Positions 44,466-60,956 are shown, numbered from the stretch's first letter. The stretch is DNA of 64,000 bases from Candidatus Heimdallarchaeota archaeon (GCA_030603365.1 JAUVXV010000001.1:576001-640000); one strand, 5' to 3'. Notes: a model not told the origin generated them from the sequence alone. Numbers and translations: made by a program.

Positions 44466-44800
44466 GGTCAAGGGTTAGGCTAGATTAGGGCTTAATGGTA
44501 ATCTAAAAGGGAACTGCAAACTGAACAGGAAGCGAAATCCGATGTTTCAGCCCTCCCAAGGGTAATCTCGGGAACTATGGTTGAACCCCTTTTTAGATGG
44601 TTTGAACCCCCATTGGGCTTAGTTAAGACCTCCTAAGCCTGAAATCCCCCAGAACCAGACTCGTGTTTGGTTTAACAGACATCTTCTGTCTGCCAGAATT
44701 TCAGTGGCTTGTGGGCTACTGGAATGGAACCCCCAACCAAACCCTCGAAACATCGAGCTAGAATCTCCTTCCTGTTCAGGCAGAAATCCCTCAGGGGTTT
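44466..44800 (+). ncRNA. Unassigned structured RNA with terminal BHB motif (tRNA-Cys-like anticodon arm interrupted by a ~266-nt intron-like RNA)
   Basis: GC-richer ORF-free island between TATA and oligo-T. Long-range pairs 44508-12/44787-91, 44514-17/44780-83, 44521-32/44768-79, 44540-48/44747-55. Internal hairpins 44616-39, 44653-72, 44676-92, 44702-21. Confidence 0.7.
44755..44797 (+). repeat. Cassette-boundary repeat R1 (3' end of the ncRNA)
   Basis: gagctagaatctccttcctgttcaggcagaaatccctcagggg followed by T-tract. Confidence 0.95.
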
Positions 44801-44928
44801 TTCTTCTTTTATTTTTGTTTATACAAAAAAAAATGATATTTTTCTTCCTTTGAGAGAATTTGGTAAAATCTAACTTGTTTTTATAAAAAGAAAATGAGTT
44901 GGGACAATAAAACTCTTAACTAATTTCT

Positions 44929-46530
44929 TTATTTTTTGTATCTCGTCTTAACAAGCGTAACTGTCCCAAGAAAAGACAATAGAACAATAAACAGACCAAA
45001 ATAAGATTCTTCAGTTTGTTCAGTTGTTGGTTTACTAGTTGCTTGGCAATCATAGTTGTAGATAAATGGATAAGGATCAGTCATGTTATAATTTCCATCT
45101 ATGACGTATTCTCCTTCTCCTTCAAAATCTGTCCAGAAGTTGCCTTGATCAGAATCATAGTCATACCACCTGTTGTTGTAATTACGATCATAAGCTTGAG
45201 AATAACCGTATTCTGTACCAGCTAAATTATTGCAGATAAAATAATTACCATAGACTTTATTCCAATTAGATTCAAAATCAGTTATACATACTCCATATTC
45301 TCTGTTTTCTTGGAAAGTGTTAGCTATAATCTCATTATTACTCGAATCTTCAAGTTTTATTCCATATCTGTTCTCGTTACAAGTATTGTTAAATATGAAA
45401 AAAGAACTTGAAACATACAAATTAATGCCATTAGTATTGTTATTACAAGTGTTATTGATTATCTGATTGTCTTCTCTATCAGGACGATCATGACTAACGA
45501 CATACATCCCATTATTCAAGTTATCATTACACTCATTATCTTGTATTAAACATGAACCGCTACGGCTAAAACGCATCCCATTCTCAATGTTTCTATTACA
45601 ATTATTCTGTTCAATAATTGAGAAATAATTTTCACTTAACCACATTCCATATGTACCATCAGAGCAGTTATTATAACCAATGTATAGATTGTTGCTATTA
45701 GCAGTAGATATTCCTACATAATTAAGTCTGAGGTCATTTCTATACATAGAAACATTGTAAAGTCCGTAAAAATAGAAACCATCATCTGCAAACTGAACAG
45801 TGTTCTCAATGAGAATAGAGTCTGCAATTGCATACAAATTAATTCCATATCGAGAGTTTGTACATAAATTATCATAGAGAGTAAGCTGTTTAGAATATGC
45901 AAAATTCATCCCATCAATGAGATTATACAAACACATGTTTTCAGTAATAGTAAATCGATCTAGAGCCCCCCCCATTATCCCACATTTATTATCATAACAA
46001 AGATTGTTGCTGATTACACTGTCATTGGAAATAAACACACCTATTCCACCCTGATTATAAGCGCATGTATTTTCACTAATGTTTAAATTTGAACAGAAAT
46101 AAGTATAGATCCCCCACACCTCAGTATTAATACAATGATTATTATTAATATCTAATATTTGACCGGTATTATTAACAAGATAGATTCCAACGAATGTAGC
46201 AGTTATAACACAGTTCTGAATTGCAAAATTCTTAGTTGTATCTCTTATTATTATTCCTGCATCTGAGGTAGTATCAATTTCAAGATTTTGTATTAAGAAT
46301 GGATTTGTTTCAGAACCATTCCCTGGAAAGCCATAAGATAGAAAATCATCATCTGAATCTATTAGTATTGGAGAGCTTGCGATTTTAATTGAATAATCTC
46401 GTGTTTCTGATAATTCAAATAAGAGAAGATTCTTTCCCTCGAATAAATTTGTCTCATTACTCTTATGCTCTCCAGAAGTGCTGACTATCATAAATATGAT
46501 GAAAAACAAATAGATGGTTCTAGATCTCAT
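44929..46530 (-). CDS. NosD/PbH1 right-handed beta-helix surface protein
   Basis: FPGNGSETNPFLIQNLEI cap, N.C..N..GI repeats, GNFWTD...DPYP, TM + basic tail. Confidence 0.85.
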   Translation of the reverse strand: MRSRTIYLFFIIFMIVSTSGEHKSNETNLFEGKNLLLFELSETRDYSIKIASSPILIDSDDDFLSYGFPGNGSETNPFLIQNLEIDTTSDAGIIIRDTTKNFAIQNCVITATFVGIYLVNNTGQILDINNNHCINTEVWGIYTYFCSNLNISENTCAYNQGGIGVFISNDSVISNNLCYDNKCGIMGGALDRFTITENMCLYNLIDGMNFAYSKQLTLYDNLCTNSRYGINLYAIADSILIENTVQFADDGFYFYGLYNVSMYRNDLRLNYVGISTANSNNLYIGYNNCSDGTYGMWLSENYFSIIEQNNCNRNIENGMRFSRSGSCLIQDNECNDNLNNGMYVVSHDRPDREDNQIINNTCNNNTNGINLYVSSSFFIFNNTCNENRYGIKLEDSSNNEIIANTFQENREYGVCITDFESNWNKVYGNYFICNNLAGTEYGYSQAYDRNYNNRWYDYDSDQGNFWTDFEGEGEYVIDGNYNMTDPYPFIYNYDCQATSKPTTEQTEESYFGLFIVLLSFLGTVTLVKTRYKK

Positions 46531-46549
46531 TTATTTTACCTTCTAATGA

Positions 46550-47347
46550 TTAATTTTTCTTCTTTCTAAATTTCTTGGTAAGACTAGTAATTGGTATAAC
46601 AAGTATAATAAAAATTGACATGTCTGACTGAATTATGGTTGTTGTAGGAGTTGTTGAGGGAGTTGTTGTAGATGTTGGTGTAGGAGTTGGAGTTGATACA
46701 TCATAAATTTCCGTTCTATTGGTAAATTCAAAATGATAAGTGATATTGGTGTTAGTAACATCGATAAACATTCTATATGTAACTACAGGAACAGGGACTG
46801 AGCTACAATTAGTGAAATCAAACCAAAGGGTGTATTCTCCTAAAGGGAGAGTCTTTTTTCCTTCAGGATAATTTAAAATTAACATTTCAAATGGAAAAGA
46901 TTTCTTATGTACTCCCGGAGTAATAATGAGAGATCCCGCAGGCCATTCATAAATAAAAACTAACTCAAGTTCGATACTTTTATTTTCAAGATTAGTTTCT
47001 AGATGAGGGAATGGAATTGGAGAACAACCATATGTACCAGTGATGTCATGTGAGGTGGGATTTTCATATTCAAGATACACATAGGTTCCAAATATTGTAA
47101 AATTGTATGAATCTTCTTCATGAAAACCTACTGAAGGAGGAAAATCGGCATCCATAATTCTCACAATTAGATATTCCTCTTCTGAAAGAACTGGAGGAAT
47201 TGCTGTACAAAATACCAAACCTAAGAGAAGTGGAATAATAATCCCCAATACCAATTTTTGATTCATTTTTATGTTTATTTTGGTTAGTAGATTTTTAGAA
47301 ATTTTCTTACTTAAAACCTCTTCAACCGTTTTCTTCTTGGGAATCAT
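46550..47347 (-). CDS. Single-domain anchored surface protein, cassette family A
   Basis: Shares RI.D...PP, ENP, TPG, LP.G.YTLW with 47560, 50674 and 51483; Thr/Pro linker; TM + KKFRKKKN. Confidence 0.7.
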   Translation of the reverse strand: MIPKKKTVEEVLSKKISKNLLTKINIKMNQKLVLGIIIPLLLGLVFCTAIPPVLSEEEYLIVRIMDADFPPSVGFHEEDSYNFTIFGTYVYLEYENPTSHDITGTYGCSPIPFPHLETNLENKSIELELVFIYEWPAGSLIITPGVHKKSFPFEMLILNYPEGKKTLPLGEYTLWFDFTNCSSVPVPVVTYRMFIDVTNTNITYHFEFTNRTEIYDVSTPTPTPTSTTTPSTTPTTTIIQSDMSIFIILVIPITSLTKKFRKKKN

Positions 47348-47462
47348 TCTACAAACCTAAATTCTGTGTTATAGACAAACTGTTTGTTGTAATTCAACTT
47401 ACCCACATTATTTATATAAAGTACGATAAGAGTATTTCAATACAATTCATTAGATAAATTTC

Positions 47463-47505
47463 GAGCTAGAATCTCCTTCCTGTTCAGGCAGAAATCCCTC
47501 AGGGA
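47463..47505 (+). repeat. Repeat R2
   Basis: 42/43 match to R1, followed by T-tract. Confidence 0.95.
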
Positions 47506-47559
47506 TTTTTTCTTCTTTTCTAAGAAACTAATATAAATGAAAAATACTTTGTATATTAG

Positions 47560-48228
47560 ATGAAAAGACTGTTCGCAAAAATTCTTTCTTCTTGGTTAGT
47601 TATCTCAGTTTTTGTTGCTTCTGTTCCAGCTTGCTCTCAAGCAGTCGATTCTGGTTATACTATCTATACACGTATAACGAATATTGATCTTCCTCCGAGT
47701 TTAATCTTCTATGGAAGCTATCCTAATCATACTTTCTTTGAGTTTTGGTATACTGCAGAAATAATCAATCCATCAGAGAAAAATCTATACATAATGACGC
47801 CTACAACTTGTCTAACTTTCATCAATGAAAATTTATCTTTCGAGAATGAATCTTACGATGGTTTTGTGTGGGGTGATCCTAAGCTATGTGGTCAATCTAT
47901 TACTAATCACACAATTGAACCTGGGATTTTGGAAGGACAACTGACATTTGAACTCTCTGTGAATGATACATTAAAGACTCTCCCCAATGGGAATTTCACC
48001 GTCTGGATTCAGTTTCATGATTATTTAGAGGAACACGAGTATATTTATTTCAAATCAACTATTGCAGTTAATGACTCGAATATCACAATAACACATGAAG
48101 GTGCAGATGTCATATTTACCTTTCCTTCAGTGTCTGCCCTCCCCAAAGAAATATCTATTTTTCTGACATTTTTAGTTATAGGACTTCCAATAATTTTTCT
48201 TGTAAGAAAACGATCACAAATGGTCTAG
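47560..48228 (+). CDS. Single-domain anchored surface protein, cassette family A
   Basis: Signal peptide; GYTIYTRIT, EIINP, TPTTCL, LCGQ, LPNGNFTVW; TM + RKR. Confidence 0.75.
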   Translation: MKRLFAKILSSWLVISVFVASVPACSQAVDSGYTIYTRITNIDLPPSLIFYGSYPNHTFFEFWYTAEIINPSEKNLYIMTPTTCLTFINENLSFENESYDGFVWGDPKLCGQSITNHTIEPGILEGQLTFELSVNDTLKTLPNGNFTVWIQFHDYLEEHEYIYFKSTIAVNDSNITITHEGADVIFTFPSVSALPKEISIFLTFLVIGLPIIFLVRKRSQMV

Positions 48229-48256: not shown

Positions 48257-48299
48257 GAGCTAGAATCTCCTTCCTGTTTAGGCAGAAATCCTTCAGGGT
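48257..48299 (+). repeat. Repeat R3
   Basis: 40/43 match to R1, extended 5' by acatc. Confidence 0.95.
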
Positions 48300-48363
48300 T
48301 TGTTCTTCCTTTCCTTATGCTTTCAAACAATATTACAGAAAGCTTTTATTTCTTCAAAAATAG

Positions 48364-48975
48364 TTGACCTTGATATCTATGAGCAAAGATAGTATTTCTC
48401 TAAATATGCTTACCTTAGCTAGTGATCCATTAAGAATATCAATCTGGTTTGAAATCCAAAGAAAAGCTGGAATTACTGCAAAAGAAATAATTCAAAAACT
48501 TAAACTTGAAGGTACTAATATCTACTATCATCTTAATAAACTTGAAAGAAGTAGATTGATTGTATCAGAATCTAAACCCGTTCCAAAATCAAATTTGTTA
48601 GAGAAATATTATAGCATAAATGTGGCTTTTTTTGCACCCGAGGAATGGAAAGCAAGATTTGACATAGGTAAATCAACAAAACATTTGAAGGATATGATTC
48701 TATACAATTTGTATTTCAACATGTTTTTGATTAACAAACAGATTATTGACGTTCAAGAACAAACTAATGAACAGATTCAGAAGAATATTGAACAATATGG
48801 TAAATTTGTCTCTAAATTTATTTTTCTGCAAAAGGATGACTTACCAAAAGTGAGCGCGAAAATAGATGAGTTCTTTGAATTTTTAAACCAAATCAAAAGA
48901 GACGCTGATAGGGATCCAATAACCGATATCAGTGATGCAACAGATACAATTCTTATCAACCTCCTCCCACTCTAA
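48364..48975 (+). CDS. ArsR-like winged-helix transcriptional regulator
   Basis: SDPLRISI, TAKEI...L, NIYYHLNKLE...LI, EKYY. Confidence 0.8.
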   Translation: MTLISMSKDSISLNMLTLASDPLRISIWFEIQRKAGITAKEIIQKLKLEGTNIYYHLNKLERSRLIVSESKPVPKSNLLEKYYSINVAFFAPEEWKARFDIGKSTKHLKDMILYNLYFNMFLINKQIIDVQEQTNEQIQKNIEQYGKFVSKFIFLQKDDLPKVSAKIDEFFEFLNQIKRDADRDPITDISDATDTILINLLPL

Positions 48976-49060
48976 TCTCTATTTAAGAAAATACATTCCA
49001 ATATATTTGAGCGCTACAACAAATTTAAATAAGCTTAATTGTTCTTAAATATGTGTTTGT

Positions 49061-49840
49061 GTGGTTTTAAGGATGAATAATTCCAAGAATGATCACAAGA
49101 AGTATCACCAAAGTCTGATGAGGAAACAAAAGAAGTTATACCCAAATCCAGGTGAAGTTCTTTTTGAATCAGAAACCAAAGCCAGAATAGGTAAGAAACC
49201 TTTCCGAAAAACACTCAAAATTTCTTCCAAAAATAAGATACTTTTACAGGTATGTTCTTCTATTTTATTTTTCACTCTTTTTTATGTTTATGTCACCACT
49301 CACCACTCATCCAATGCATTATTATTTTTGATTGCTTTCACCCTGCTCTATGTTTTTACTTCTACAATTCTATTCGGTTCTTTAATCAAATTTCTATCTG
49401 GTGAGCATTACTCTTTTGGAGTAATTTTTTCTGAATTCTTCTTTGTTATAGGTATTATGATTGGAACATTTAGTGCCTTGTACCTACCCATATTGCTCAT
49501 TCTTTTTGCATCTGAAAAAAGTGGTGAGTGGTTAAGATATGCTCTAACTACAGCTCTCGTAGTTGCACCCCTCTCGTATATATTTAGCGTCAGTTATGAA
49601 TTTCTTAGAAAAGAAGGATACAAAATAAGAGAAATTTTCCTGTATTTTCGAATTAAGAAGCTCAGAAGAGAGGAACTAAAGAAAGAAACACAAAAGGTAG
49701 ATATTTTTTATGAAAAGATAGGCAATATATCAGAGAACTATAAAGAAAGAATCAGTAGAACATTAACAAGAGAAGACATCATTGAGCAAAACAAAGACAC
49801 TCGAACTACTAATTCTATAAAAGAAACAAATATACAATAG
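49061..49840 (+). CDS. 4-TM membrane protein, cassette family B (divergent)
   Basis: Same layout as 49842 and 61661: 4 TMs then IF.Y...K.R.EE..K.T..D.FY. Confidence 0.65.
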   Translation: MVLRMNNSKNDHKKYHQSLMRKQKKLYPNPGEVLFESETKARIGKKPFRKTLKISSKNKILLQVCSSILFFTLFYVYVTTHHSSNALLFLIAFTLLYVFTSTILFGSLIKFLSGEHYSFGVIFSEFFFVIGIMIGTFSALYLPILLILFASEKSGEWLRYALTTALVVAPLSYIFSVSYEFLRKEGYKIREIFLYFRIKKLRREELKKETQKVDIFYEKIGNISENYKERISRTLTREDIIEQNKDTRTTNSIKETNIQ

Positions 49841-49841
49841 G

Positions 49842-50591
49842 TTGAAATTAATGCAAGAATCAGTACTTAGCAAGACTAAAAGATTTTTCAGGAAAAATGA
49901 TATCTTCTTCAAAGTCTCTCTTTTTTTATTTCTAGCCGCGGGTACAGCATATGCATTTATTTTTGGAAACGCTCTACTTAAAATTGTAGCATCTCTATCT
50001 CTCGGAACTATGATTGCTTCATTTATCTCAAATTATGTTTTCAATTATCTTTATGGAGACGCATTCAAGCTTACACATGCAATAAATGAGATACTTTACT
50101 TGTTCCTAGGAATTCCAATAATGATCATAGCAATAGGTTACTTGCCGCTCAGTGTTTATATTCTCTTTTTTTCAACTGAAAATAATGAATGGATTGTCCC
50201 AATCTTAATTGGTATAATGGTAACAATGCAAATATCCTCTTTCATTTACATAATAAAAAGAAGGAGTAAAGAGAAAAGGAAAAATATCTTCCAGTTTATC
50301 AAATATATGTTCGACTTTAAAACAAGAGCAGAAGAGCAAAGAAAATTGCAAAAACAAACAGATCAAATAGACCGTTTCTACACAGACATGGAGAAAGTAA
50401 GGGATAGAGTAGATACCACAATGGAACGCAGTACCATAGATTTTGATGAGTTTGATTGGAAGAAAGTAAGAGGGATTAATCGAGAAGATAAAACAGAGGT
50501 AATCTGCTGGAATTGTAAAGAGACTAATAATACTAGTAATCTTGTATGTTCGAGCTGTGGAGTGGCTCTAAAGGAAAAATTATCGAGCTAG
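49842..50591 (+). CDS. 4-TM membrane protein with C-terminal zinc ribbon, family B
   Basis: CWNC..CSSC at C-terminus; stop codon TAG lies inside repeat R4. Confidence 0.75.
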   Translation: MKLMQESVLSKTKRFFRKNDIFFKVSLFLFLAAGTAYAFIFGNALLKIVASLSLGTMIASFISNYVFNYLYGDAFKLTHAINEILYLFLGIPIMIIAIGYLPLSVYILFFSTENNEWIVPILIGIMVTMQISSFIYIIKRRSKEKRKNIFQFIKYMFDFKTRAEEQRKLQKQTDQIDRFYTDMEKVRDRVDTTMERSTIDFDEFDWKKVRGINREDKTEVICWNCKETNNTSNLVCSSCGVALKEKLSS

Positions 50592-50627
50592 AATCTCCTT
50601 CCTGTTCAGGCAGAAATCCCTCAGGGG
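50585..50627 (+). repeat. Repeat R4
   Basis: Identical to the R1 core. Confidence 0.95.
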
Positions 50628-50673
50628 TTTTACTTCTTTCTTTGGAATTAATAAACTATTTAAGGTCAGAATA

Positions 50674-51348
50674 GTGAGTATATTGATGAAGAGATTTCAC
50701 AAGAATTTAATTTCCTTCTGTTTTGTTTCCCCTTTGATACTTACTTACATTGTTTCATTTACTCAGGCTTCAACTTCTGGTTATACAATTTATACACGAA
50801 TAACTGATATAACTCTCCCTCCAGAGATAGTTGAGAAAACTTTCTTCCCTAATCATACAGCGTTTGAATTTGATTATACTGGAGAAATCATAAATCCCAC
50901 GGGGATTGATTTGTTTATCTGGACACCAACTACTTGCTTAGTTCATAATACTGGAAATATAACTTTTGAAAATGAACAAAATGATGGTCACATTCTCGGG
51001 GGAGAAACCCTCTGTGGACAGGCATTCACTCAACATAAGATACCTCCTGGAATTTCTGAAGGAACATTACCCCTTTACATTTCTATAAATGGTACAGTTG
51101 AGACTCTCCCAAATGGAAATTACTCTGTATGGATTGTCATACCTGATTGTGAAGATCAACATGATTATGTTCATTATCCGTCAATTATCTCAGTTTCAAA
51201 TTCTAATATTGTAACTACTCATACTGGAGCAAATATGACTTTCACTTTCCCATCTGTACCCTCATTCCCTCCCCTTCCAGTTTATTCCTTATTTGTTTTC
51301 TTTATTTTGTTGACTATTATACATTACATTAGAAAAAGAAAAATATGA
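50674..51348 (+). CDS. Single-domain anchored surface protein, cassette family A
   Basis: Close paralog of 47560..48228 (SGYTIYTRIT, TPTTCL, LCGQ, LPNGNY.VW). Confidence 0.75.
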   Translation: MSILMKRFHKNLISFCFVSPLILTYIVSFTQASTSGYTIYTRITDITLPPEIVEKTFFPNHTAFEFDYTGEIINPTGIDLFIWTPTTCLVHNTGNITFENEQNDGHILGGETLCGQAFTQHKIPPGISEGTLPLYISINGTVETLPNGNYSVWIVIPDCEDQHDYVHYPSIISVSNSNIVTTHTGANMTFTFPSVPSFPPLPVYSLFVFFILLTIIHYIRKRKI

Positions 51349-51382
51349 TTTATGATCAAATGCTGTAATTTTCTTCAACATC

Positions 51383-51425
51383 GAGCTAGAATCTCCTTCC
51401 TGTTCAGGCAGAAATCCTTCAGGGG
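51383..51425 (+). repeat. Repeat R5
   Basis: 42/43 match to R1, extended 5' by aacatc. Confidence 0.95.
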
Positions 51426-51482
51426 TTTTTCTTCTTTTCTTTGCCTATGTTTTAAATACCTGTTTGTCAAAATTGTATACTG

Positions 51483-52127
51483 ATGATTCAATTTGATAAA
51501 ACTAAAATCTCATCGGTTTTTGTTTTTTTACTTGTATTTTTCTTCTTTGTGAATATTGTACAATCTGATCCAGAAGATATACTTTATAGTCGCATTTCTG
51601 AAATTACTATAAATACTCCTAACTATTCTTCCGAATATAATTATACAGATTTCGATTTTAGTTTTATCATAGAGTTATATAATCCTATGAATGAAGTTAT
51701 ACTTATCTCAACTCCACACTCAATTCTCTTTAATCCTCACGTCAATGTTAGTTTTGCTAATGATTCCTACTCGCTATTTTTCTTGTATGGCTATTATACT
51801 GTACCAACTGATCACTCCATCCCTCCTAATACCACAACTTATTTGAGAGATTATCCTCTTCATTTTACAGATGCAAACCTAACACGATTACCTGAAGGAA
51901 ATTATACCTTATGGTTTGAATTAGATGGACCATCACCTATCACCTATCAACCATTGTCCTCCTTCATAAATGTAAACGACACAACAATAGAAATTTCTCA
52001 TGAAGAATATAATGGTTCATTATTTGTAATTCCTGAATATTCAAGGTTCTTTGTTTATTTTGGAACAACTCATTTATGTTTGATAATATTGATGATTTTT
52101 TTCTTCAAAAAAAGAAGAAATCATTAG
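51483..52127 (+). CDS. Single-domain anchored surface protein, cassette family A
   Basis: YSRISEI, ELYNP, STP, LPEGNYTLW; TM + KKRR. Confidence 0.72.
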   Translation: MIQFDKTKISSVFVFLLVFFFFVNIVQSDPEDILYSRISEITINTPNYSSEYNYTDFDFSFIIELYNPMNEVILISTPHSILFNPHVNVSFANDSYSLFFLYGYYTVPTDHSIPPNTTTYLRDYPLHFTDANLTRLPEGNYTLWFELDGPSPITYQPLSSFINVNDTTIEISHEEYNGSLFVIPEYSRFFVYFGTTHLCLIILMIFFFKKRRNH

Positions 52128-52139
52128 AATTCAATGAAT

Positions 52140-52182
52140 GAGCTAGAATCTCCTTCCTATTCAAGCAGAAATCTCTCAGGGT
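52140..52182 (+). repeat. Repeat R6 (most diverged)
   Basis: 39/43 match to R1. Confidence 0.9.
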
Positions 52183-52320
52183 TTTTCTTTCATTATTTTA
52201 CTTCAAAAATGTAATTTTCTTCTTAAAATGTACAAATAGTTGTACGGATTAAAGCATGCTCTGTACAAAGCATTATATTAAATCTGTTGGAAGACTTGTG
52301 ATAATTAGTCGATAATTCAA

Positions 52321-53034: not shown

Positions 53035-53136
53035 AAGAAATGATTATTGTAGGATTTAATAATTGTGTAGTATAATCTAAATTATTCTTGAAAAAAGAAA
53101 ATTAGTTGAGGTAATAAAACTCTTACCCATTCTTCT

Positions 53137-54765
53137 TTATTTATTGTATCTCGTTTTAACAATCACAACAGTCCCAAGGAAAGATAATAGAACAATGAAA
53201 AAACCAAAAGAAGATTCTTCAGGTGGGTCAGTTGTTGGTTCACTAGTTACTTGGCAATCATAATAGTATTCAAATGGATAAGGATCCGTCCTATTGTGGT
53301 TTCCATCAATTTGATACTCTCCTTCTCCTTCATAATCGTTCCAATAATTCCCTTCATCTGTTGCGCTTTCATACCATCTATTGTTATATCCTTCATCATA
53401 AGCTTGAGAAAAGCCATGCTCTGTACCATTTCTGTTATTGCAGATGAAATAATTGTGATGTATCTTGTTCCAAGTTGACCAATCCCAAATCTTTATCCCA
53501 TATTCTATATTTTCTTGTAAGATGTTATATGAAATTGTTGTGAAATCTGTTTCCTCAAGTATAATGCCATTTTGATTATTTTTGCATGTGTTATTGGCTA
53601 TTGTTAGTGAATCAACTTCCCTTAAGCGAATTCCAATATTGCTATCACTACAGGTATTTAAAACAATACTGGGAGTTCCTTTATAGATTGTAATTCCATA
53701 ATCAACATTTCGAATTACAGTATTGTTCAGTACTTGAGTTGCTATGCTTGTGTGAATATCAATTCCTGCATATTCATTATCATAACAGTAGTTATTTTTG
53801 ATTATTGATGCAGAATCAGCGATAATATCTATTCCTGAGGTGCTGGAATTACATGTGTTTTCTTGAATAGTCATTTCTTCAGTGTAAGCCATCCTAATGC
53901 CATAATGACTTTCAGTACAGTAATTTTTCTGAATTGTAGCTAGAGAAGAATATTGACAATAAATTCCCCAATTTGTATTTTCACAAGAATTTTCAGATAT
54001 TGTACCTAAACTAGATGAAAGAAAACTTATCCCCCACCATGAACTGGTAACAGTATTCGAAGTAGCATTGACCGAATTCGAACCTAAAATATGAATACCT
54101 GCATTGTTTGCGGAATAGCAATAATTATCTTCAATTATAGAATTGTGTGTTTGAGATAATGCAATTCCGAAGTCACTGTTATAACATTCATTATTCTTTA
54201 TTATCTCGTGGTTTGAATAGTAACATACAATTCCTACAGCACCACCACTGCACTTGTTGTTAGATATGGTTACATAATTTGTTGAATAGATGTAAATTCC
54301 ATACCACTCATCTCCATGACAAACATTATTGCTAATCTCAATATTTTCAATAGTGAGATCACTTATGCTTATTGCTGATACATTTGCATTCACTGTGCAG
54401 AATTGAATTTTGAAATGCTTTGTGACATTTGTAATAAAAATTCCGAATTCCAGATCTGTTTCTATTGTGTAGTATTCTATAAGATACGGTTCTTCCTCAG
54501 TTCCAATTCCAGGAAAACCATACGAGTCGAAATCTTGGTCATTCAGTATGATAATGGGGTCTAGATAGGACAATTTAATATTATATTGATGTTCATAAAC
54601 AGAATTACTGTATTGATCTATTGATCTTCCCCCTTGATTTGTCAATTCAAACTGTTGCATGTTTAGGATTGTTATAAGCATTAGAAGGATATAAAAGAAC
54701 TTAATAGATCTTAATGTTCTACTCTTCATAATATTCTGTCCTCTATATGTAATAATGTCATTCAT
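53137..54765 (-). CDS. NosD/PbH1 beta-helix surface protein
   Basis: FPGIGTEEEPYLIE cap, PbH1 repeats, GNYWND, TM + basic tail. Confidence 0.85.
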   Translation of the reverse strand: MNDIITYRGQNIMKSRTLRSIKFFYILLMLITILNMQQFELTNQGGRSIDQYSNSVYEHQYNIKLSYLDPIIILNDQDFDSYGFPGIGTEEEPYLIEYYTIETDLEFGIFITNVTKHFKIQFCTVNANVSAISISDLTIENIEISNNVCHGDEWYGIYIYSTNYVTISNNKCSGGAVGIVCYYSNHEIIKNNECYNSDFGIALSQTHNSIIEDNYCYSANNAGIHILGSNSVNATSNTVTSSWWGISFLSSSLGTISENSCENTNWGIYCQYSSLATIQKNYCTESHYGIRMAYTEEMTIQENTCNSSTSGIDIIADSASIIKNNYCYDNEYAGIDIHTSIATQVLNNTVIRNVDYGITIYKGTPSIVLNTCSDSNIGIRLREVDSLTIANNTCKNNQNGIILEETDFTTISYNILQENIEYGIKIWDWSTWNKIHHNYFICNNRNGTEHGFSQAYDEGYNNRWYESATDEGNYWNDYEGEGEYQIDGNHNRTDPYPFEYYYDCQVTSEPTTDPPEESSFGFFIVLLSFLGTVVIVKTRYNK

Positions 54766-54771
54766 TGTTTT

Positions 54772-56364
54772 TTATTTTCTATATCTTTTTGTAGTAACAA
54801 CAACAGTCCCAAGAACTGATAATACAATAATGAGAAGACCAAAGTAAGATTCTTCAGTTGGTACGATTGTTGGTTCACTAGTTACTTGGCAATAATAATA
54901 GTATTCAAAGGGATAGGGATCAGTGTTGTTATCTTTTCCGTCAATCTGATACTCTCCAATCCCTTCATAATCGTTCCAATAGTTCCCTTCATCTGTAGAG
55001 CTTTCATACCATCTGTTATTATACCCTTCATCATAAGCTTGAGAAAAACCATGCACAGTACCATTTCTATTGTTGCAGATGAAGTAATTGTGATGAATTT
55101 TATTCCAGGTTGACCAATCACCAATCTTGATTCCATATTCAATATTCTCTTGTAGAATATTGTAGGAGATGGTTGAAAAATCTGTTTCGGACAGAACAAT
55201 TCCTTTTATATTCATTGCACAAGTATTGTTAGAAAGAGTAATTGATTGTACTCCTGTTATAGATATTCCAATTCTATTGAAACTGCAATTGTTCAGAAGG
55301 ACATTAGGAGAGCCTTTATAAATTGTAATGCCCGATAATTTATTCATAAAAAGCGAATTGTTTGTTACCGAAGTAGATATGCCTCTCCAGATATTTATAC
55401 CATACTCAGAATTACTGTAGCAAACATTGTTTCGAACTTGAGATTCGGAATCTTCATCAACTGCAATACCTTGTTGACAAGAATGACACTCATTTTCTGA
55501 AACATTTATCTTTCCAGTGTGCCAAAGTTCAATACCTGCAATACTATTTATGCACAAATTTCTATCTATAACTGCTCTATTTGAATATTCTGCCAATATC
55601 CCCCAAAATGTATTATTACAAAAATTATCAGTTATATAACCAAAACTGGAACTAATGAAGTCTATTCCAAAACCTGACTTATAAACTGTATTTCGAGAGA
55701 TGTTAATATAGCTAGAATACATAATGTGAATTCCAGCATAACTGTTGTGATGGCAGTAATTATCTCCAATATAGGAGTTATCGGTTTCATATAGGGCTAT
55801 ACCAAAATCATTGTAAATGCATTCATTATTCTCGATGAACTCATTATTTGAGTACCAACAAACAATCCCTACTGCACCTCCTCTGCACCAATTATCAGTT
55901 ATTATCACATAATCTGTTGAATAAATATAGATTCCATACCATTCTTCTACTTGACAAACATTATTTCGAATTTCTATATTCTCTACTGTTAGATCACTAA
56001 CGCTGATTGCTGATACACTTGCATAAACTACACAGTATTGGATTTTGAAATGCTTGGTAGTGTTTGTAATAAATATCCCAAATTCCTCATCTGTATCTAT
56101 TGTGTAGTTTTCTATAAGATAAGGCTCTTCTTCTGTTCCTTGACCTGGAAAAGCATAATAAATGAAATCTTGGTCATTGATTATAATTATAGGATCACTC
56201 ACGGTTAGTTTAACCTCATTAAATATTTCCACTGAAGATATCTGTTCAATATTATCATGTTCCATATCCTTAGAAATTTCATCGCTATTTGCATAAAAAA
56301 ACAATAAAATAATCAAACTGACGTAAATAACTCTCTTTTTTCTCTGATTCATACATTTCCTCAT
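54772..56364 (-). CDS. NosD/PbH1 beta-helix surface protein
   Basis: Close paralog of 53137..54765. Confidence 0.85.
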   Translation of the reverse strand: MRKCMNQRKKRVIYVSLIILLFFYANSDEISKDMEHDNIEQISSVEIFNEVKLTVSDPIIIINDQDFIYYAFPGQGTEEEPYLIENYTIDTDEEFGIFITNTTKHFKIQYCVVYASVSAISVSDLTVENIEIRNNVCQVEEWYGIYIYSTDYVIITDNWCRGGAVGIVCWYSNNEFIENNECIYNDFGIALYETDNSYIGDNYCHHNSYAGIHIMYSSYINISRNTVYKSGFGIDFISSSFGYITDNFCNNTFWGILAEYSNRAVIDRNLCINSIAGIELWHTGKINVSENECHSCQQGIAVDEDSESQVRNNVCYSNSEYGINIWRGISTSVTNNSLFMNKLSGITIYKGSPNVLLNNCSFNRIGISITGVQSITLSNNTCAMNIKGIVLSETDFSTISYNILQENIEYGIKIGDWSTWNKIHHNYFICNNRNGTVHGFSQAYDEGYNNRWYESSTDEGNYWNDYEGIGEYQIDGKDNNTDPYPFEYYYYCQVTSEPTIVPTEESYFGLLIIVLSVLGTVVVTTKRYRK

Positions 56365-56367
56365 TTT

Positions 56368-58002
56368 TCATCTTATCCGTTTATTATGATTCTTGTATCT
56401 CCTTTCCTTTTTATATCGCATTTTAGCAATCGACATAGTCCCAATAAATGATAATACAACAGTAAGAAGACTTAAAGAAGATTCTTCTGTTGGTTCAGTT
56501 ATTGTTTCTGTTGTTATACACTCAAAATAGTATTCAAATGGATAAGGATCAGTCATATTGTATTTACCATCTATTGAGTATTCTCCTTCTCCTTCATAAT
56601 CTGTCCAAAAATTGCCTGTGTTTGAATCAAAATCATACCACCTATTGTTATAACTACGATCATAAGCTTGGGAAAAACCGTATTCTGTACCAGCTAAGTT
56701 ATTGCAGATAAAGTAATTGCCATAGATTCTATTCCATGTAGATTCAAAATCTGTTATACATACTCCATATTCTCTGTTTTCTTGGAAAGCATTAGAAATT
56801 ATCTCATTATTACTCGAATCTTCAAGTTTCATTCCATATCTGTTCTCGTTACAAGTATTGTTAAATATGAAAAAAGAACTTGAGACGTACAAATTAATAC
56901 CATAAGTATTGTTATTACAAGTGTTACTGATTATCTGATTGTCTTCTCTATCAGAACGTTCATGTCTAAAGACATACATCCCATTGTCCAAATTGTCATT
57001 ACAGGTGTTATTCACTACTAAGCAAGAACCACTTGAACGCAAGTAAATTCCATCCCGTGTATTATTGTTGCAGATATTATGATCTATTAATGAAGACTGA
57101 CTTTGAGTTGTCCAAATTCCGTATGTACCAGCAGAACAGTTGTTATAAACAATGTCAACACCATAAGTACCATGGTTATCTATTCCAATATAAGTGAAGA
57201 CAATATTATTTCTAATCACTGTAATGTTTTTAAGATAGGAAAGAGTAAATCCATTGTCCGAATATTCAATGGTGTTTTCTGAGAGAATGGCATCTTCTAC
57301 TGAATATAAATCGATCCCAATTCTAGTGTTTGAGCAAAAATTATTTTGTAGGTTTATATTTTTTGAATATGCTTGATTTATACCAATTTTGAGGTTGTAT
57401 ACACAATAATTGTTCGTTATTATTGTGCCTTCTGCACCCCCTCCTATTATACCATATTCATTATCATAGCAGAGATTATTTACAATTTTACTATAGTTAG
57501 AATAAAAAACTCCTATACCTGCTTGAGTATAAGCACAAGTATTATTGGAAATAGTCAGGTTTGGGCAAAGAAAAACATATATCCCATAAATGGCGCTATT
57601 TGTGAAATGGTTGTTGTTGATTGAAGAATAACTTCCTGTGTTATTAAATAGATGAATACTTGTGGCACTTGCACTTACACTGCAATTGAAAATGACAAAA
57701 TTCAAGGTTGTATCTCTAATAAATATGCCAAAATCTGAATCTGTTTCAATCTCTAGATTTTGTATTAAGAATGGATTAGTCTCAGAACCATTCCCTGGAA
57801 GACCATAAGATAGAAAATCATCATCTGAACCTATTAGTATAGGAGAGCTTGCGATTTTAAATGAATAATCTCGTATTTCTGATAAATCTAATAAGAAATG
57901 ATCCTTTCCCTCGAATGAATTTATCTCTTTACTCTTGTAATTACCAGAAGTGCTGACTAGCATAAATACGAAAAGAAACAAACAGATGGTTCTAGATTTC
58001 AA
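56368..58002 (-). CDS. NosD/PbH1 beta-helix surface protein
   Basis: Close paralog of 44929..46530. Confidence 0.85.
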   Translation of the reverse strand: MKSRTICLFLFVFMLVSTSGNYKSKEINSFEGKDHFLLDLSEIRDYSFKIASSPILIGSDDDFLSYGLPGNGSETNPFLIQNLEIETDSDFGIFIRDTTLNFVIFNCSVSASATSIHLFNNTGSYSSINNNHFTNSAIYGIYVFLCPNLTISNNTCAYTQAGIGVFYSNYSKIVNNLCYDNEYGIIGGGAEGTIITNNYCVYNLKIGINQAYSKNINLQNNFCSNTRIGIDLYSVEDAILSENTIEYSDNGFTLSYLKNITVIRNNIVFTYIGIDNHGTYGVDIVYNNCSAGTYGIWTTQSQSSLIDHNICNNNTRDGIYLRSSGSCLVVNNTCNDNLDNGMYVFRHERSDREDNQIISNTCNNNTYGINLYVSSSFFIFNNTCNENRYGMKLEDSSNNEIISNAFQENREYGVCITDFESTWNRIYGNYFICNNLAGTEYGFSQAYDRSYNNRWYDFDSNTGNFWTDYEGEGEYSIDGKYNMTDPYPFEYYFECITTETITEPTEESSLSLLTVVLSFIGTMSIAKMRYKKERRYKNHNKRIR

Positions 58003-58005
58003 TTA

Positions 58006-59532
58006 TTATACCTTCCAATGATGCATTTTTCTTCTTCTTACCAAAAAAGTAACCCCTAAGAAATAAAAACTTATGTAGACTAATTTTGGAGTTAGTGCTT
58101 CTTCTGTCTCTACAGGTGTCTGCGTTGGAGTTGTTGTAATTTCATATCTAAATGGCTCGGCATTAGGATAACGATCTACGAAATCTTCTCCACCATCTAT
58201 TGTATAATTTCCTTCTCCGATATAGTCTGACCAGTAATTTCCTAGTTGATTCTCTTCATCATACCAATGATTATTGAATCCTTCATCGAAACATTGAGAG
58301 AATCCAGAAAGCATTTCAGCATTATTGTTGATAAAATCGTTATAGAAGATATCATTTTGCCAACTCCAAGTTGAAAAAATACCAAAATCACTATTATTTT
58401 CCAGAATATTGTAGTGTATCGAATTATAGCTTGCATATTCTAAATGCATACCATATTCAAGGTTATTAGAAAAAGTATTATTTGCAATCATTCTTCGGTT
58501 TGCATCTTTTATCTTGATTCCAATTCCATTGAATTCACAGAAATTATTAACGAAATCTGATGGTTCGTTTACATCGAATTCATTATCAGATATTTTAATC
58601 CCATATAGGCCATTATGATTACATGTGTTATTTTTTACAAGAAGATACTCCCCTGCAACAAAACTCATTCCAACCTCTAAATTATATTCACAGATGTTAT
58701 TAGTAAAATTACTAGATATCAAACCTCTACTTGAAATCCCAGTTAAAATGCTATTTGAGAAGTTATTGCCAGATATTACTGAATTAGGGCAAGATTCAAT
58801 ACTTAATCCTACATTACAATTGATGCATGTATTGTTTAGAATCTTATTAGAGCGGGAATATTTAATTTTAATCCCATAAAATGTGTCTTGACATAAGTTA
58901 TCTTCTAAGATGATGTTTCTACTGTCACCACATACGATTCCTGCACAAGTATTATCTGTTATATTAGAGTATCCCGCACAATCAATGTCAATCTGCCCCC
59001 AAAAACAGCTGTTATTGACCACAGAAGAATACGGTACATCCCTAAGAATAATCCTACAGGATTTGTACTGAAGTATATTATCGTGTAGAACTACACCTGC
59101 TGACTCTCTGATCCATATTGCTGTATAATTGCAGTGAGTAATGGTATTATTAAGGATAGATATGGTATTGGTACCAACATTTGTCACCATTATTCCTCGT
59201 GTTCCTGTTAAGTGACAATTTCTTATAACAAAATGTTTTGTAGTATCCTGAATTAAAATGGCGTCTTGTACATAACTTATGATGTTTAGATTTTCAATGA
59301 TGTAAGGGCGAGTGTTATTTCCATACCCCGAAAAACCATAATCAGTAAAATTATCGTCTGAAATTATCCGAATCGATTCATGGTTAGAATATGCTTTAAT
59401 TTCAGGAAAACTAGTTTGAAAAACATTATAAGACTCCCCTAAAATTTGAAATTTGGATTCAGATGTTGAAATCGTGAAAATAAGCATTGATAGAATTATC
59501 ATTAAAAATAGGTTGTTTTTTTTGTTCATCAT
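58006..59532 (-). CDS. NosD/PbH1 beta-helix surface protein
   Basis: GFSGYGNNTRPYIIENL cap, PbH1 repeats, GNYWSDY, TM + RRRK. Confidence 0.85.
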   Translation of the reverse strand: MMNKKNNLFLMIILSMLIFTISTSESKFQILGESYNVFQTSFPEIKAYSNHESIRIISDDNFTDYGFSGYGNNTRPYIIENLNIISYVQDAILIQDTTKHFVIRNCHLTGTRGIMVTNVGTNTISILNNTITHCNYTAIWIRESAGVVLHDNILQYKSCRIILRDVPYSSVVNNSCFWGQIDIDCAGYSNITDNTCAGIVCGDSRNIILEDNLCQDTFYGIKIKYSRSNKILNNTCINCNVGLSIESCPNSVISGNNFSNSILTGISSRGLISSNFTNNICEYNLEVGMSFVAGEYLLVKNNTCNHNGLYGIKISDNEFDVNEPSDFVNNFCEFNGIGIKIKDANRRMIANNTFSNNLEYGMHLEYASYNSIHYNILENNSDFGIFSTWSWQNDIFYNDFINNNAEMLSGFSQCFDEGFNNHWYDEENQLGNYWSDYIGEGNYTIDGGEDFVDRYPNAEPFRYEITTTPTQTPVETEEALTPKLVYISFYFLGVTFLVRRRKMHHWKV

Positions 59533-60797
59533 TGAGCCACTTCCAGGCTTGAACCTTTTCTCTTTCTTCTCCTTATAACTTGAAAAAGAAATGCTGATTC
59601 AATTAGTAGTAAGCACCATAAATCAAAAGATAAAATGGATGTATGAGGTGTTGATGTCATATGTAGTATATTTTCAAAGGTCTTCAGTTTTAGTTTATAG
59701 GTCCTTTCTTCAGTTGTTGAGTTATAATATTCTTCGAAAACATAAAATGATGTTACTGGATCTGAAAGGCTATACAGTCTTAAAATTGTTGAGCCATATG
59801 GATATGTTTCCATATGTACAAGGTTACCATCAGCTGAAAAGATTTTCAGAACACACACCGTAGTTCCATGTTTAGTACTAGTTTTCATAACATAATACTC
59901 CCCATTGAAATGACAATCAAAATAATACGAACTCATTGTTTTAGTTTCCAAAGTAAAATTGTTGACCAACTCATTATCATAAGATATCTGAGAAGCAAAA
60001 GTGGGTCCATATGTGTAATTTGTGTAAATAACACTAATTCCCTTTTCATATAATGAAATTGAGTGAATTTCTTGACTTAGTTTTCTATGCCAAACAACAG
60101 ACCTATTATTGGTATCTATTTTTAATATATCATCTTTGTAAGCAACAAACAAATCTCCTTTGTGGTTTTCAGCAAATTTCCAATCTAGGAAAGGTCTTGA
60201 TCTAGTATAATTCATCGTATTTATAGTTGTGAAACTTACTTCCCAGTCATAATATCCTGTCTCATTGAATGCATAAATCGTCGTATTTGTATAGTTGATA
60301 TCATCTATTGAGAAGAAACCTTCAATTCTTCCAAGGTAGAAATTGCCTTTATTTGAAAGCCCAATCTCATTTAGATAAATAGTATCTAATGTTATTTTTC
60401 TTATTAAACTCATATTTGAATCGAATTTGATATACGTACAATTGTATTGATTAGGAGGCCAAACCATATACGTGAAAATATTCCCATCATCATCCATAAT
60501 CGGATCGTTGCTGAAATCAGCATTGTTTTTGGGAGCATTAAGTATTTCGTTCCCATTTTTGTCAAATTTAAGAAAGTGTATGTACCCTTCGTACATTGCA
60601 TCTAATGTAAGTAGTGTATTTTGATATTTATCAATTCCATGGCTTTCCATACTTCGAACAACCATATACTTGTACATTTCTCCAAACTCAATTTCCCAAA
60701 GATCCTCAGCTGTATTATCTAAAGATTGAATTGGAATAACTGAAATACATAAACAAATCAACAAGAAATAACATATAATTTTCTTCTTGGGTATCAT
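59529..60797 (-). CDS. Secreted beta-rich (beta-propeller-like) anchored protein
   Basis: Signal peptide; LKFDKNGN, DDDGNIF, IFSADGNL blade-like motifs; TM + RRRKRK. Confidence 0.55.
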   Translation of the reverse strand: MIPKKKIICYFLLICLCISVIPIQSLDNTAEDLWEIEFGEMYKYMVVRSMESHGIDKYQNTLLTLDAMYEGYIHFLKFDKNGNEILNAPKNNADFSNDPIMDDDGNIFTYMVWPPNQYNCTYIKFDSNMSLIRKITLDTIYLNEIGLSNKGNFYLGRIEGFFSIDDINYTNTTIYAFNETGYYDWEVSFTTINTMNYTRSRPFLDWKFAENHKGDLFVAYKDDILKIDTNNRSVVWHRKLSQEIHSISLYEKGISVIYTNYTYGPTFASQISYDNELVNNFTLETKTMSSYYFDCHFNGEYYVMKTSTKHGTTVCVLKIFSADGNLVHMETYPYGSTILRLYSLSDPVTSFYVFEEYYNSTTEERTYKLKLKTFENILHMTSTPHTSILSFDLWCLLLIESAFLFQVIRRRKRKGSSLEVAQ

Positions 60798-60913
60798 TTT
60801 ACTTACCTTAGTTTTTTGAAATAGAGAAGCTATTTTCTATAATAAGGTATTTCCACAATATATATTAAAAGCTAGATGAGAGTATTTCAATACAATTTGT
60901 TAATCGAATTTTA

Positions 60914-60956
60914 GAGCTAGAATCTCCTTCCTGTTCAGGCAGAAATCCCTCAAGGG
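60914..60956 (+). repeat. Repeat R7 (distal end of array)
   Basis: 42/43 match; downstream ttcttcttttatttt also matches the R1 flank. Confidence 0.95.

Follow-up and report, generated by a model that had tools for sequence, protein, structure and literature searches.

Behind a structured RNA gene in a Heimdallarchaeal genome lies a 16.2-kb block of genes, most of them for surface or membrane proteins, that is divided by seven direct copies of the RNA gene's 3' end. Our comparisons with related genomes show that the block is an island acquired at the RNA gene's 3' end, with a gene content that changes fast from one species to the next. We propose that it is an additive genomic island that arose by conservative recombination at the repeats (Campbell-type insertion of circles, with an enzyme supplied in trans), and we would put the probability of this reading at about 45%. 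The window that we analysed is a stretch of 64,000 nucleotides from this genome (G000); its features are collected in Table 1.

Table 1. Features of the island and its left flank, in window coordinates
Feature	Position	Strand	Basis or remark
PAC2-family gene, conserved left flank	43621-44340	+	Pfam PF09754; syntenic in all relatives and outgroup genera
Unclassified structured RNA gene, ~310 nt	44490-44800	+	Conserved alignment, consensus fold
Repeat copy 1	44755-44797	+	Native 3' end of RNA gene; attL-like under integration model; similarity to others continues to ~44815
Unit 1	44798-47462		Two minus-strand genes; related to part of unit 6
Unit 1, beta-helix (NosD-like) surface protein	44929-46530	-	Pfam
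Unit 1, membrane protein, 265 aa	46550-47347	-	TM scan
Repeat copy 2	47463-47505	+	1 mismatch; upstream of minus-strand gene start
Unit 2, single gene 47560-48228, 222 aa	47506-48256	+	Signal peptide and C-terminal anchor; own TATA-like box
Repeat copy 3	48257-48299	+	3 mismatches
Unit 3, three genes	48300-50584	+	Pfam, sequence
Unit 3, ArsR/MarR-type winged-helix regulator	48364-48975	+	Pfam
Unit 3, membrane protein, 259 aa	49061-49840	+	Sequence
Unit 3, membrane and Zn-ribbon protein, 249 aa	49842-50591	+	Stop codon is the TAG inside the repeat
Repeat copy 4	50585-50627	+	0 mismatches
Unit 4, single gene 50674-51348, 224-aa surface protein	50628-51382	+	Sister to non-array copy C14:56008
Repeat copy 5	51383-51425	+	1 mismatch
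Unit 5, single gene 51483-52127, 214-aa surface protein	51426-52139	+	Divergent member of unit 2/4 family
Repeat copy 6	52140-52182	+	4 mismatches
Unit 6	52183-60913		Six genes, both strands
Unit 6, membrane protein, 237 aa	52321-53034	+	TM scan
Unit 6, four beta-helix surface proteins	53137-54765, 54772-56364, 56368-58002, 58006-59532	-	Pfam for 53137-54765 and 58006-59532; other two by homology to those
Unit 6, anchored protein, 422 aa	59529-60797	-	TM scan
Repeat copy 7	60914-60956	+	1 mismatch; attR-like under integration model; DNA beyond is homologous to DNA directly after the G023 RNA gene
Older, repeat-free island part	61052-63869	+	ORFs 61052-61612, 61661-62437, 62538-63371, 63501-63869

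The repeat and its anchor RNA gene

The original prediction described seven direct copies of a 43-nt sequence, and every one of them is at the predicted position. All are on the plus strand, they match at 39 to 43 of the 43 positions, and their starts are spaced by 2708, 794, 2328, 798, 757 and 8774 bp. Six of the copies have at most 3 mismatches, where 0 were expected in 100 shuffles; the copy at 52140 (39/43) is the most decayed. The whole 3.65-Mb assembly contains seven forward and no reverse copies, all inside these 16.2 kb. A sensitive blastn-short search of the whole genome found no degenerate copies outside the locus, and no second array of this kind was found in the genome. As the copies are not dispersed and none are inverted, we reject a MITE or a generic terminator repeat. 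The T-rich tail (TTTTTCTTCTTT) may be partly a generic terminator, because it is also found at 62440-62460, after a gene that lacks the core repeat.

The repeat had also been said to begin sharply near (catc)gagctag. Identity does rise at CATCGAG, but the edge is not razor-sharp: when 19 displaced copies from 8 genomes are each compared to the native copy of their own genome, there is a short gradient, from background at -19 to -15 to at least 75% from CATCGAG, and some displaced copies in relatives reach 10-12 nt further 5'. Across species, the limits of the repeat block are consistent (about -15 to +30 around an invariant 20-mer), and the repeats are 43-65 bp long. They are conserved far better than the DNA that separates them. 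For example, units 2 and 4 are 65% identical, while the repeats that flank them match one another, and also the native copy, at 95-98%. The core contains a weak dyad (TCCTTCCTG-TT-CAGGCAGAA, 7/9), which by our estimate is within chance expectation.

Copy 1 makes up the final 43 nt of the RNA gene, and the conserved alignment and consensus fold of this gene agree with the prediction that the first copy is the native end of a structured RNA. The gene is richer in GC than the window as a whole (48% versus 33%), with a TATA-like box ahead of it (44459-44466) and, after 44797, a T-tract terminator. It is confined to the Heimdallarchaeaceae: 22 of 24 genomes from the same genus have one full copy, and three further genera of the family have partial matches. 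It matches no Rfam family, either at the gathering threshold or at E<=10. A tRNA is rejected, as ARAGORN found no match, which upholds the prediction of a non-tRNA anchor; RNase P RNA and SRP RNA are rejected as well, since both are located elsewhere in the genome. The closing stem is BHB-like, with an outer helix, a 4-bp CUGC/GCAG helix, AAA bulges, and a 12-bp inner helix (44521-44532 with 44769-44780), and this arrangement of helix, 3-nt bulge, 4-bp helix, bulge and helix is kept in 18 of 18 RNA sequences. We predict that the RNA is probably excised and circularised.

Might the copies act as RNA, with the array being secondary? Each contains the 3' BHB strand and a terminator, so it could pair with the 5' strand of the RNA precursor and let the tRNA-splicing machinery cleave and ligate in an alternative way or in trans, or it could be a shared 3'-end or stability element. 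The best-conserved part of the displaced copies is exactly the 3' BHB strand (CCUUCCUGUUCAG-GCAG-AAA), and copies 3-6 lie directly 3' of plus-strand genes and end in a T-tract. On the other hand, copies 2 and 7 are well conserved even though they sit behind the starts of minus-strand genes, with no plus-strand gene upstream, and therefore they are not 3' UTRs of plus-strand genes. Conservation also spans about 12 nt upstream of the BHB strand, and the genome has a single 5' strand. Ligation would also attach nothing variable, because every 3' exon would consist of one and the same short stretch that precedes the T-tract. Because a role in RNA would also leave the empty and filled sites described below unexplained, we consider it improbable.

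Empty and filled sites in relatives

The left flank of the island, in which the PAC2-family gene is preceded by SBP_bac_5 and P-type ATPase genes, is conserved, and so is a right flank that begins beyond the window, at about window-equivalent 64344. In g10 and g11, two outgroup genera, nothing of the island stands at the site, and the right-flank gene comes directly after the RNA gene. The whole island is also absent at this site in G007 and G004, which are from the same genus. Judged from these genomes, the empty site is the ancestral state. A close relative, G023, is empty of the array: its RNA gene (89-90% identical) is directly followed by a homologue of 61052-61612. In G023, the RNA gene occupies the place that copy 7 has here, and the sequences that follow the two can be aligned. 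The segment from copy 1 to copy 7 (16.2 kb) is therefore an insertion, with the repeat as its exact boundary.

At least eight other species or metagenome contigs have arrays with different cargo, so cassette content differs between relatives, the reverse of the identical content that would have spoken against the original prediction. The repeats match the RNA variant of their own genome (e.g., GAATGCCC is found only in G013 and GAGTCAGAATCCCC in G003). With species-specific arrays and species-matched repeats, the proposal that the repeats delimit gene units in a variable locus is borne out. In three genomes (G010, G012 and G024), cargo follows the RNA gene but a second repeat is absent, which counts against stepwise insertion.

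Within our window, the expectations about cargo were also correct: three units have exactly one gene, and the cargo is almost all membrane or secreted protein. Specifically, copies 1 and 7 enclose 15 ORFs, of which 14 encode signal-like or TM-like hydrophobic segments, and most of these 14 proteins also have an anchor at the C terminus, together with a basic tail. Minus-strand genes occur in several units. In the three cassettes that we read for promoters (units 2, 4 and 5), the sequence has a TATA-like box after the repeat and ahead of the start codon.

The cargo proteins belong to paralogue families of the host, with in-lineage duplicates (49842/61661 at 77% amino acid identity and 44929/56368 at 64%). 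For each unit, the island contains a paralogue. Units 2, 4 and 5 are related to each other, and so are units 1 and 6 (44927-46564 matches 56402-58036 at 75%, and 47329-47519 matches 60779-60969 at 79%). Unit 3 is related to the repeat-free part, where 61661-62437 is a paralogue of 49842-50591; the DNA at 49832-50576 is 83% identical to 61683-62428. In a tree of the 220-aa family to which units 2, 4 and 5 belong, the array genes are not one clade, which implies that they were recruited more than once. For example, 50674-51348 is 55% identical to a non-array copy but 47-49% identical to its array neighbour. Array copies from related species do pair in this tree (G013 with G005, and 47560 with L075). 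The arrays of relatives also contain a SecY paralogue and an MBL-fold protein.

How the array may have formed

Under the mechanism that we favour, an incoming circle would carry a segment identical to the last ~45-65 bp of the RNA gene, and conservative recombination with the resident segment would add or re-add a unit. The RNA gene would be rebuilt and a displaced copy of the repeat would be left behind the unit. Repeated insertion would yield a head-to-tail array, and recombination between any two direct copies would delete or release units. The enzyme would be encoded outside of the array and would act in trans. The cargo would come mostly from expanded families of membrane-anchored surface proteins that the host lineage itself possesses, and hence we propose that the locus diversifies the cell surface. 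We infer the circular intermediates, the site-specific (not homologous) catalysis, the identity of the recombinase, and the benefit of surface variation.

The original prediction held that the window has no integrase or transposase. This is correct for the array, but ORF 62538-63371, at the end of the island, encodes an acidic tract and the "Recombinase" domain of serine recombinases, but not their catalytic domain. In the arrays examined (about ten, across species), we saw no integrase or transposase, nor any other recombinase with a catalytic domain. In particular, Pfam and NCBIfam identified no integrase or remnant in the G000 array, there was no integrase among ten unassigned cargo ORFs from the arrays or islands of G003, G004, G006, G010 and G013, and no split int ORFs read through the repeats. 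Elsewhere in G000, there is a single tyrosine recombinase (PF00589), which is XerA-like and on another contig, and there is no match to PF16795. The XerA-like gene was seen in G000 and G002 and not in most array-bearing relatives; PF00589 had no match in 12 of 24 genomes from the genus, including the array-bearing G003, G006, G013 and G016 (MAGs that are 81-89% complete). Mobilisation in trans by a site-specific recombinase, as originally predicted, is a putative step, and the failure to find a canonical tyrosine recombinase in several array-bearing relatives counts against it.

Five ORFs in G000 have resolvase domains: two are of the IS607 type, one is a fragment, and two are proteins of about 250 aa with catalytic and Recombinase domains. 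The latter two are core genes of the family that are present with or without arrays, and there are no informative repeats near them; therefore, we could not tie them specifically to the arrays. The protein without a catalytic domain at the island's end is found in 19 of 25 genomes from the genus. Empty-site genomes have it too, on a different contig from the one with the RNA gene, and its link to arrays is therefore not a strict one.

We also searched for the site in free elements. The invariant 20-mer had no matches in IMG/VR, and the repeat region had none in phage and plasmid collections. Scans of metagenomes and genomes for the site gave only chromosomal arrays, plus three chance matches of 20-23 nt. 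No virus, plasmid or free-element contig with the site was found in those collections, and none of the site-bearing contigs has the terminal overlap of a circular contig.

Another reading, which we doubt, is that Heimdallarchaeaceae of this genus encode a dedicated platform for cassette exchange, similar to an integron in its working but with an unrelated mechanism. Its site would be the 3' BHB half of a circular-RNA gene, and a non-canonical recombinase acting in trans would capture, shuffle and discard the host's surface-protein genes and so vary the cell surface. Candidates for the recombinase would be the highly conserved, family-wide serine recombinases of 243-257 aa, with catalytic and Recombinase domains, perhaps acting together with their paralogue at the island's end, which has no catalytic domain.

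Because the cargo consists of host paralogues with in-lineage duplications, unequal homologous recombination with gene conversion is a serious rival, and endogenous duplication fits these duplicates as well as insertion does. In such an accordion, an ancient tandem duplication with a breakpoint about 45-60 nt inside the 3' end of the RNA gene would have made the first displaced copy. Unequal exchange between copies would then have enlarged and shrunk the array, and conversion from the selected native copy would have kept the others uniform, with no site-specific recombinase. The other genes would have arrived by paralogue exchange or by flank-guided replacement. This would suit the lack of an array-linked recombinase, the failure to find tyrosine recombinases in several array-bearing genomes, the paralogue of each unit within the island, and the gradual fading of identity at the 5' edge. 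The displaced copies always carry their own genome's RNA variant, as concerted evolution predicts, the pairing of array copies from related species is compatible with vertical descent, and recombination between direct repeats easily makes empty sites. Nevertheless, as the empty state is ancestral in the outgroup genera, at least one founding event is still needed. The accordion does not sit well with a unit 4 gene that is nearer to a non-array copy than to its array neighbour, with array genes that are not one clade, or with unrelated cargo between identical repeats (the ArsR-like regulator here, and the SecY paralogue and MBL-fold protein in relatives). Also, a 45-bp island at 95-100% identity with flanks at 65% demands very frequent conversion without loss of the array. 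Overall, we think that the accordion is somewhat unlikely.

What marks this locus is that it is anchored on an RNA gene that is unclassified and probably circular, that units can be single genes, and that there is no integrase in about ten arrays. The Heimdallarchaeaceae are an archaeal family that is often placed closest to the eukaryotes, and to our knowledge, the Asgard archaea are still without genetics. If there is a trans-acting recombinase, then integron and pdif cassette systems would have an archaeal equivalent in this locus, which would also offer a natural means of inserting DNA at a specific site in Asgard archaea. If homologous recombination drives the array, then it would be a clean case of concerted evolution of a 45-bp site shaping a hypervariable locus of surface proteins. 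By either mechanism, the locus would mark an origin of strain-level diversity in the cell surface of Heimdallarchaeaceae, which bears on virus-host and syntrophic interactions.

Comparison with known systems

We found no published description of this locus in the literature. Genomic islands that arise by repeated insertion at the ends of tRNA or tmRNA genes are well known, and She et al., cited in PMC8371274, reportedly described archaeal tandem integrations and "gene capture" in 2001. The locus resembles these additive islands in that its target is the 3' end of a stable RNA gene, direct repeats identical to the 3' part of the gene stand at both ends of the insert, the gene is regenerated, and there are tandem arrays and empty sites. 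It differs in that the target is an unclassified BHB-flanked RNA restricted to one archaeal family, the smallest units measure 757-798 bp and hold a single gene, about ten arrays have no integrase or remnant and several hosts show no tyrosine recombinase, and the cargo resembles host paralogues rather than virus or plasmid genes. In archaea, tandem integrations at the 3' ends of RNA genes and integrated elements without an integrase are established, and integrase genes can be lost after integration (PMC8371274). The targets named in this review, whose subject is archaeal tyrosine recombinases, are tRNA genes, protein-coding genes and intergenic regions; the phrase "non-coding RNA" does not appear in it (PMC8371274).

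"Integron-like," as the array was originally called, holds as an analogy only. As in integrons (including those reported from archaeal MAGs), small, repeat-delimited cassettes without a recombinase are ordered on one platform, with the repeat 3' of the gene. However, the platform is the end of an RNA gene, and some units have multiple genes on both strands. Pfam and NCBIfam searches of the flanking ORFs found no IntI-type gene next to the array. The repeat copies are 91-100% identical in sequence, whereas attC sites are conserved in structure, and we found no attC-like hairpin: for two repeat copies, folds of both strands as ssDNA were at -3.5 to -4.3 kcal/mol (z = +0.4 to +0.8 versus shuffles). 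We therefore reject a true integron, given also the TATA-like boxes of the three units that were read and the minus-strand genes of several units, whereas integron cassettes mostly have no promoter and depend on a shared Pc promoter. Beyond the short single-gene units with a repeat on their 3' side, nothing supports either an integron or a dispersed MITE or terminator that resembles the end of the RNA gene by chance, and we consider this pair of explanations extremely improbable.

Integration by a large serine recombinase leaves attL and attR sites that share only a 2-bp crossover, with no long direct repeats. We reject this process here, as the repeats are 43-65 bp long and the protein of 62538-63371 has no resolvase catalytic domain. 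In IMEX elements and in the pdif modules of Acinetobacter plasmids, modules without an integrase are moved in trans by the housekeeping Xer recombinase. Our units are similarly small, integrase-less and bounded by copies of a short site, but the XerA-like gene was not seen in most array-bearing relatives, the dyad of the repeat is weak, and the repeat is at most a candidate dif site. Finally, the closing stem of the anchor RNA is similar to that of circular RNAs that are excised at a BHB (for example, the circularised SRP RNA of Thermoproteus). This likeness is limited to the anchor gene and does not extend to the array, and the motif is relaxed here, with an extra A opposite the 3' bulge.

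Repeat copies and their anchor RNA

The 43-bp repeat was originally predicted to occur as seven direct copies, and their number, positions and spacings are correct, with all of them on the + strand. Six copies have at most 3 mismatches, where 0 would be expected by chance, and the seventh, at 52140, has 4. A pattern search of the whole genome (a 3.65-Mb MAG in 17 contigs, 89% complete, with the window at C1:576001-640000) found no copy besides these seven in either orientation, a permissive blastn-short search found no degenerate copies elsewhere, and screening k-mers for further clusters of short repeats turned up nothing beyond ordinary paralogous genes. So the element is private to this locus. 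The scatter that a MITE or a generic terminator would show is absent from both the pattern search and blastn-short, and we reject both.

Each of 19 displaced copies, taken from 8 genomes, was compared to the native copy of its own genome (positions 0-19 served to find the copies; only the flanks are unbiased). Identity is at background from -19 to -15, is at least 75% from CATCGAG onward, is about 95% across the invariant 20-mer to +26, and then falls off into T-rich sequence. This gives a block of about 45 nt whose ends fall at similar positions in every species compared; a few displaced copies reach 10-12 nt further 5'. The gene that starts at 49842 has its stop codon, TAG, within the first bases of the repeat (GAGCTAG). 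Its in-lineage paralogue at 61661 has only its own stop and a T-rich tail, and the core repeat is absent there.

Copy 1 terminates a GC-rich segment (48% vs. 33% for the window) whose fold is closed by a long stem. This anchor RNA has no match in Rfam and no tRNA match, and it is not RNase P RNA or SRP RNA, as both are located elsewhere in the genome. Of 24 genomes in the genus, 22 have a single full copy. Three more genera of the family have partial matches, and the order's other families have none. In an alignment of 18 sequences, hairpins that are variably present lie between invariant blocks, and GAACCCC motifs are repeated in the core. In the consensus fold, an AAA bulge separates the 12-bp inner helix from a central 4-bp CUGC/GCAG helix, and a second, A-rich bulge lies between that helix and an outer one. 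Both the inner and the central helix are paired in all 18 sequences. As modeled, the closing stem resembles a bulge-helix-bulge (BHB), in a relaxed form that has an additional A across from the 3' bulge. Such a stem predicts that the tRNA-splicing endonuclease would excise a circle of about 266 nt, and the repeat would then span the final ~28 nt of the putative circle, followed by the 3' strand of the BHB, the 3' exon and the terminator.

Locations of features (plain numbers, window positions; C, contigs of the genome under study; L, other sequence records)
Feature	Location	Strand
Anchor RNA gene	44490-44800	+
Repeat copies 1-7 (starts)	44755, 47463, 48257, 50585, 51383, 52140, 60914	+
NosD-like gene (tblastn query)	44929-46530	
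Membrane protein, unit 1	46550-47347	-
Right end of unit 1	47329-47519	
~220-aa family gene	47560-48228	
Gene ending in repeat	49842-50591	+
~220-aa family gene	50674-51348	
Membrane protein, unit 6	59529-60797	-
Right end of unit 6	60779-60969	
First gene after copy 7	61052-61612	
Paralogue of 49842-50591	61661-62437	
Catalytic-domain-less recombinase paralogue	62538-63371	+
Serine recombinase	C15:328337-329065	
The same, on L051	L051:1189-1920	-
Serine recombinase	C2:49078-49779	
The same, on L052	L052:1201-1959	-
SecY paralogue, G003	L032:10794-12080	
SecY paralogue, G006	L041:1139-2440	
TnpB/Cas12f-like gene, G004	L040:4924-6183	

Empty and filled sites in relatives

The flanks of the locus are syntenic across the genus, with a P-type ATPase, SBP_bac_5, PAC2 and the RNA gene on the left and, on the right, a 105-aa gene followed by a 530-aa gene and the genes beyond it. 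What lies between them, which we compared among relatives as the original prediction had proposed, is different in nearly every species. Two outgroup genera (g10 and g11) have the 530-aa gene immediately next to the RNA gene, which makes the empty state the ancestral one. Within the genus, G007 and G004 have an empty site. (In G004, a TnpB/Cas12f-like gene with OrfB_IS605 and TNB domains sits just past it, between the two conserved right-flank genes and outside the site.) In G023, whose RNA is 89-90% identical, the gene directly behind the RNA gene is a homologue of the first gene after copy 7. The DNA after copy 7 aligns with the DNA after the G023 RNA gene, including a TATA-like promoter region and the gene start; the 16.2 kb between copies 1 and 7 was therefore inserted, with the repeat as its exact boundary on both sides.

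Arrays are also found in other species. G016 and two metagenome contigs share the order RNA gene, 517-aa beta-helix protein, repeat, 259-aa protein, repeat, 246-aa protein. G003 has the native copy and five displaced copies, G006 has three displaced copies, G013 and contig L075 have three copies each, and G005 and G021 have two each. A SecY paralogue (428-433 aa, PF00344) is cargo in the repeat-bounded arrays of G003 and G006. Displaced copies share the sequence variant of their own genome's RNA gene. Many contigs end at or just behind repeats, as is to be expected when repeats are assembled.

The locus thus combines an empty site that is ancestral, empty and filled alleles that correspond exactly, direct repeats that match the end of the RNA gene, and species-specific cargo. 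Together these features are what is classically seen where conservative recombination has inserted DNA at the 3' end of a stable RNA gene. In archaea, both tandem integrations and integrated elements without an integrase are known (PMC8371274). Given this DNA-level signature and these precedents, we favor Campbell-type insertion and excision at the repeats, which would build the array with catalysis supplied in trans; we put the probability of this at roughly 45%. Additive islands that are anchored on RNA genes are already known, and this locus shares their structure. What is new is that the anchor is an unclassified RNA of Heimdallarchaeaceae flanked by a BHB-like motif, that units can be as small as a single gene, and that integrases are consistently absent. 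The locus is not described in the Asgard mobile-element paper that we searched or in a review of archaeal recombinases (PMC8371274).

Cargo and other possible ways to build the array

Between copies 1 and 7, 14 of the 15 ORFs have signal- or TM-like segments, most with a C-terminal anchor and then a basic tail; the cargo includes five NosD-like beta-helix proteins and one ArsR/MarR-type regulator. Many further members of the cargo families are encoded elsewhere in the genome, and no repeat adjoins any of them. The NosD-like right-handed beta-helix surface proteins are hugely expanded, with about 70 loci on 14 contigs (tblastn). There are also duplicates within the island: the genes at 49842 and 61661 are 77% identical (amino acids), and those at 44929 and 56368 are 64% identical. 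At their right ends, units 1 and 6 share 79% nucleotide identity over a stretch that reaches into copies 2 and 7. The membrane proteins encoded there start with the same leader, MIPKKK, have homologous upstream regions and are otherwise unrelated, so these right ends are duplicates.

The main rival explanation, a single founding duplication on which unequal homologous recombination and gene conversion have acted since, would account for this internal paralogy and host-like cargo, as well as for the missing integrase and the species-matched repeats. But it explains less well why some cargo is unrelated, why the array genes are not monophyletic, and why repeats with 95-100% identity contrast so sharply with units at 65%. 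For example, units 2 and 4 are 65% identical over their whole length, against 95-98% for their repeats. And in the tree of the ~220-aa family, the array genes require at least 2-3 state changes: the gene at 50674 is sister to a non-array copy common to this genome and G023, the gene at 47560 forms a pair with one of the array genes on contig L075, and the array genes of G013 and G005 pair together. We consider this rival somewhat less likely than insertion catalyzed in trans. That the displaced copies have a role at the RNA level seems improbable, as copies 2 and 7 are well conserved and neither lies behind a + strand gene.

The array had been described as integron-like, and we reject that it is an integron: there is no nearby IntI gene, the repeats are conserved in sequence and have no attC-type single-stranded DNA fold (z > 0), and units 2, 4 and 5 each have their own TATA-like box. 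We also reject integration by a large serine recombinase, as this leaves no long direct repeats.

Candidate recombinases in trans

As originally predicted, the array encodes no integrase or transposase, and none is found among ten unassigned cargo ORFs that we scanned in G003, G004, G006, G010 and G013. As to a recombinase that co-occurs with the repeat, serine recombinases and a XerA-like protein are available in trans, but none is tied to the repeats, and the serine recombinases are present with or without arrays. The genome has one tyrosine recombinase, barely at the cut-off of the XerA model. In a genus-wide search with PF00589, only this genome and G002 have a strong XerA-like match, and 12 of 24 genomes have none in the results, including the array-bearing G003, G006, G013 and G016 (MAGs that are 81-89% complete). 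A canonical Xer system may often be missing from this lineage, or its Xer may be too divergent for this query.

The two serine recombinases are paralogues of about 250 aa, with a resolvase catalytic domain and a Recombinase domain and without the zinc-ribbon domain. They are core genes of the Heimdallarchaeaceae, with 76-92% identity across the genera of the whole family, and are better conserved than PAC2. They look domesticated rather than mobile.

A further paralogue, encoded at the island's far end, has a Glu/Asp-rich N-terminus of about 150 aa and the C-terminal Recombinase domain of large serine recombinases (PFGY...NPIY.G...HEPI), and it lacks the resolvase catalytic domain. It is present in 19 of 25 genus genomes at 53-73% identity, usually in this same far-end position; in genomes with an empty site, the homologue is on a contig other than the RNA gene's.
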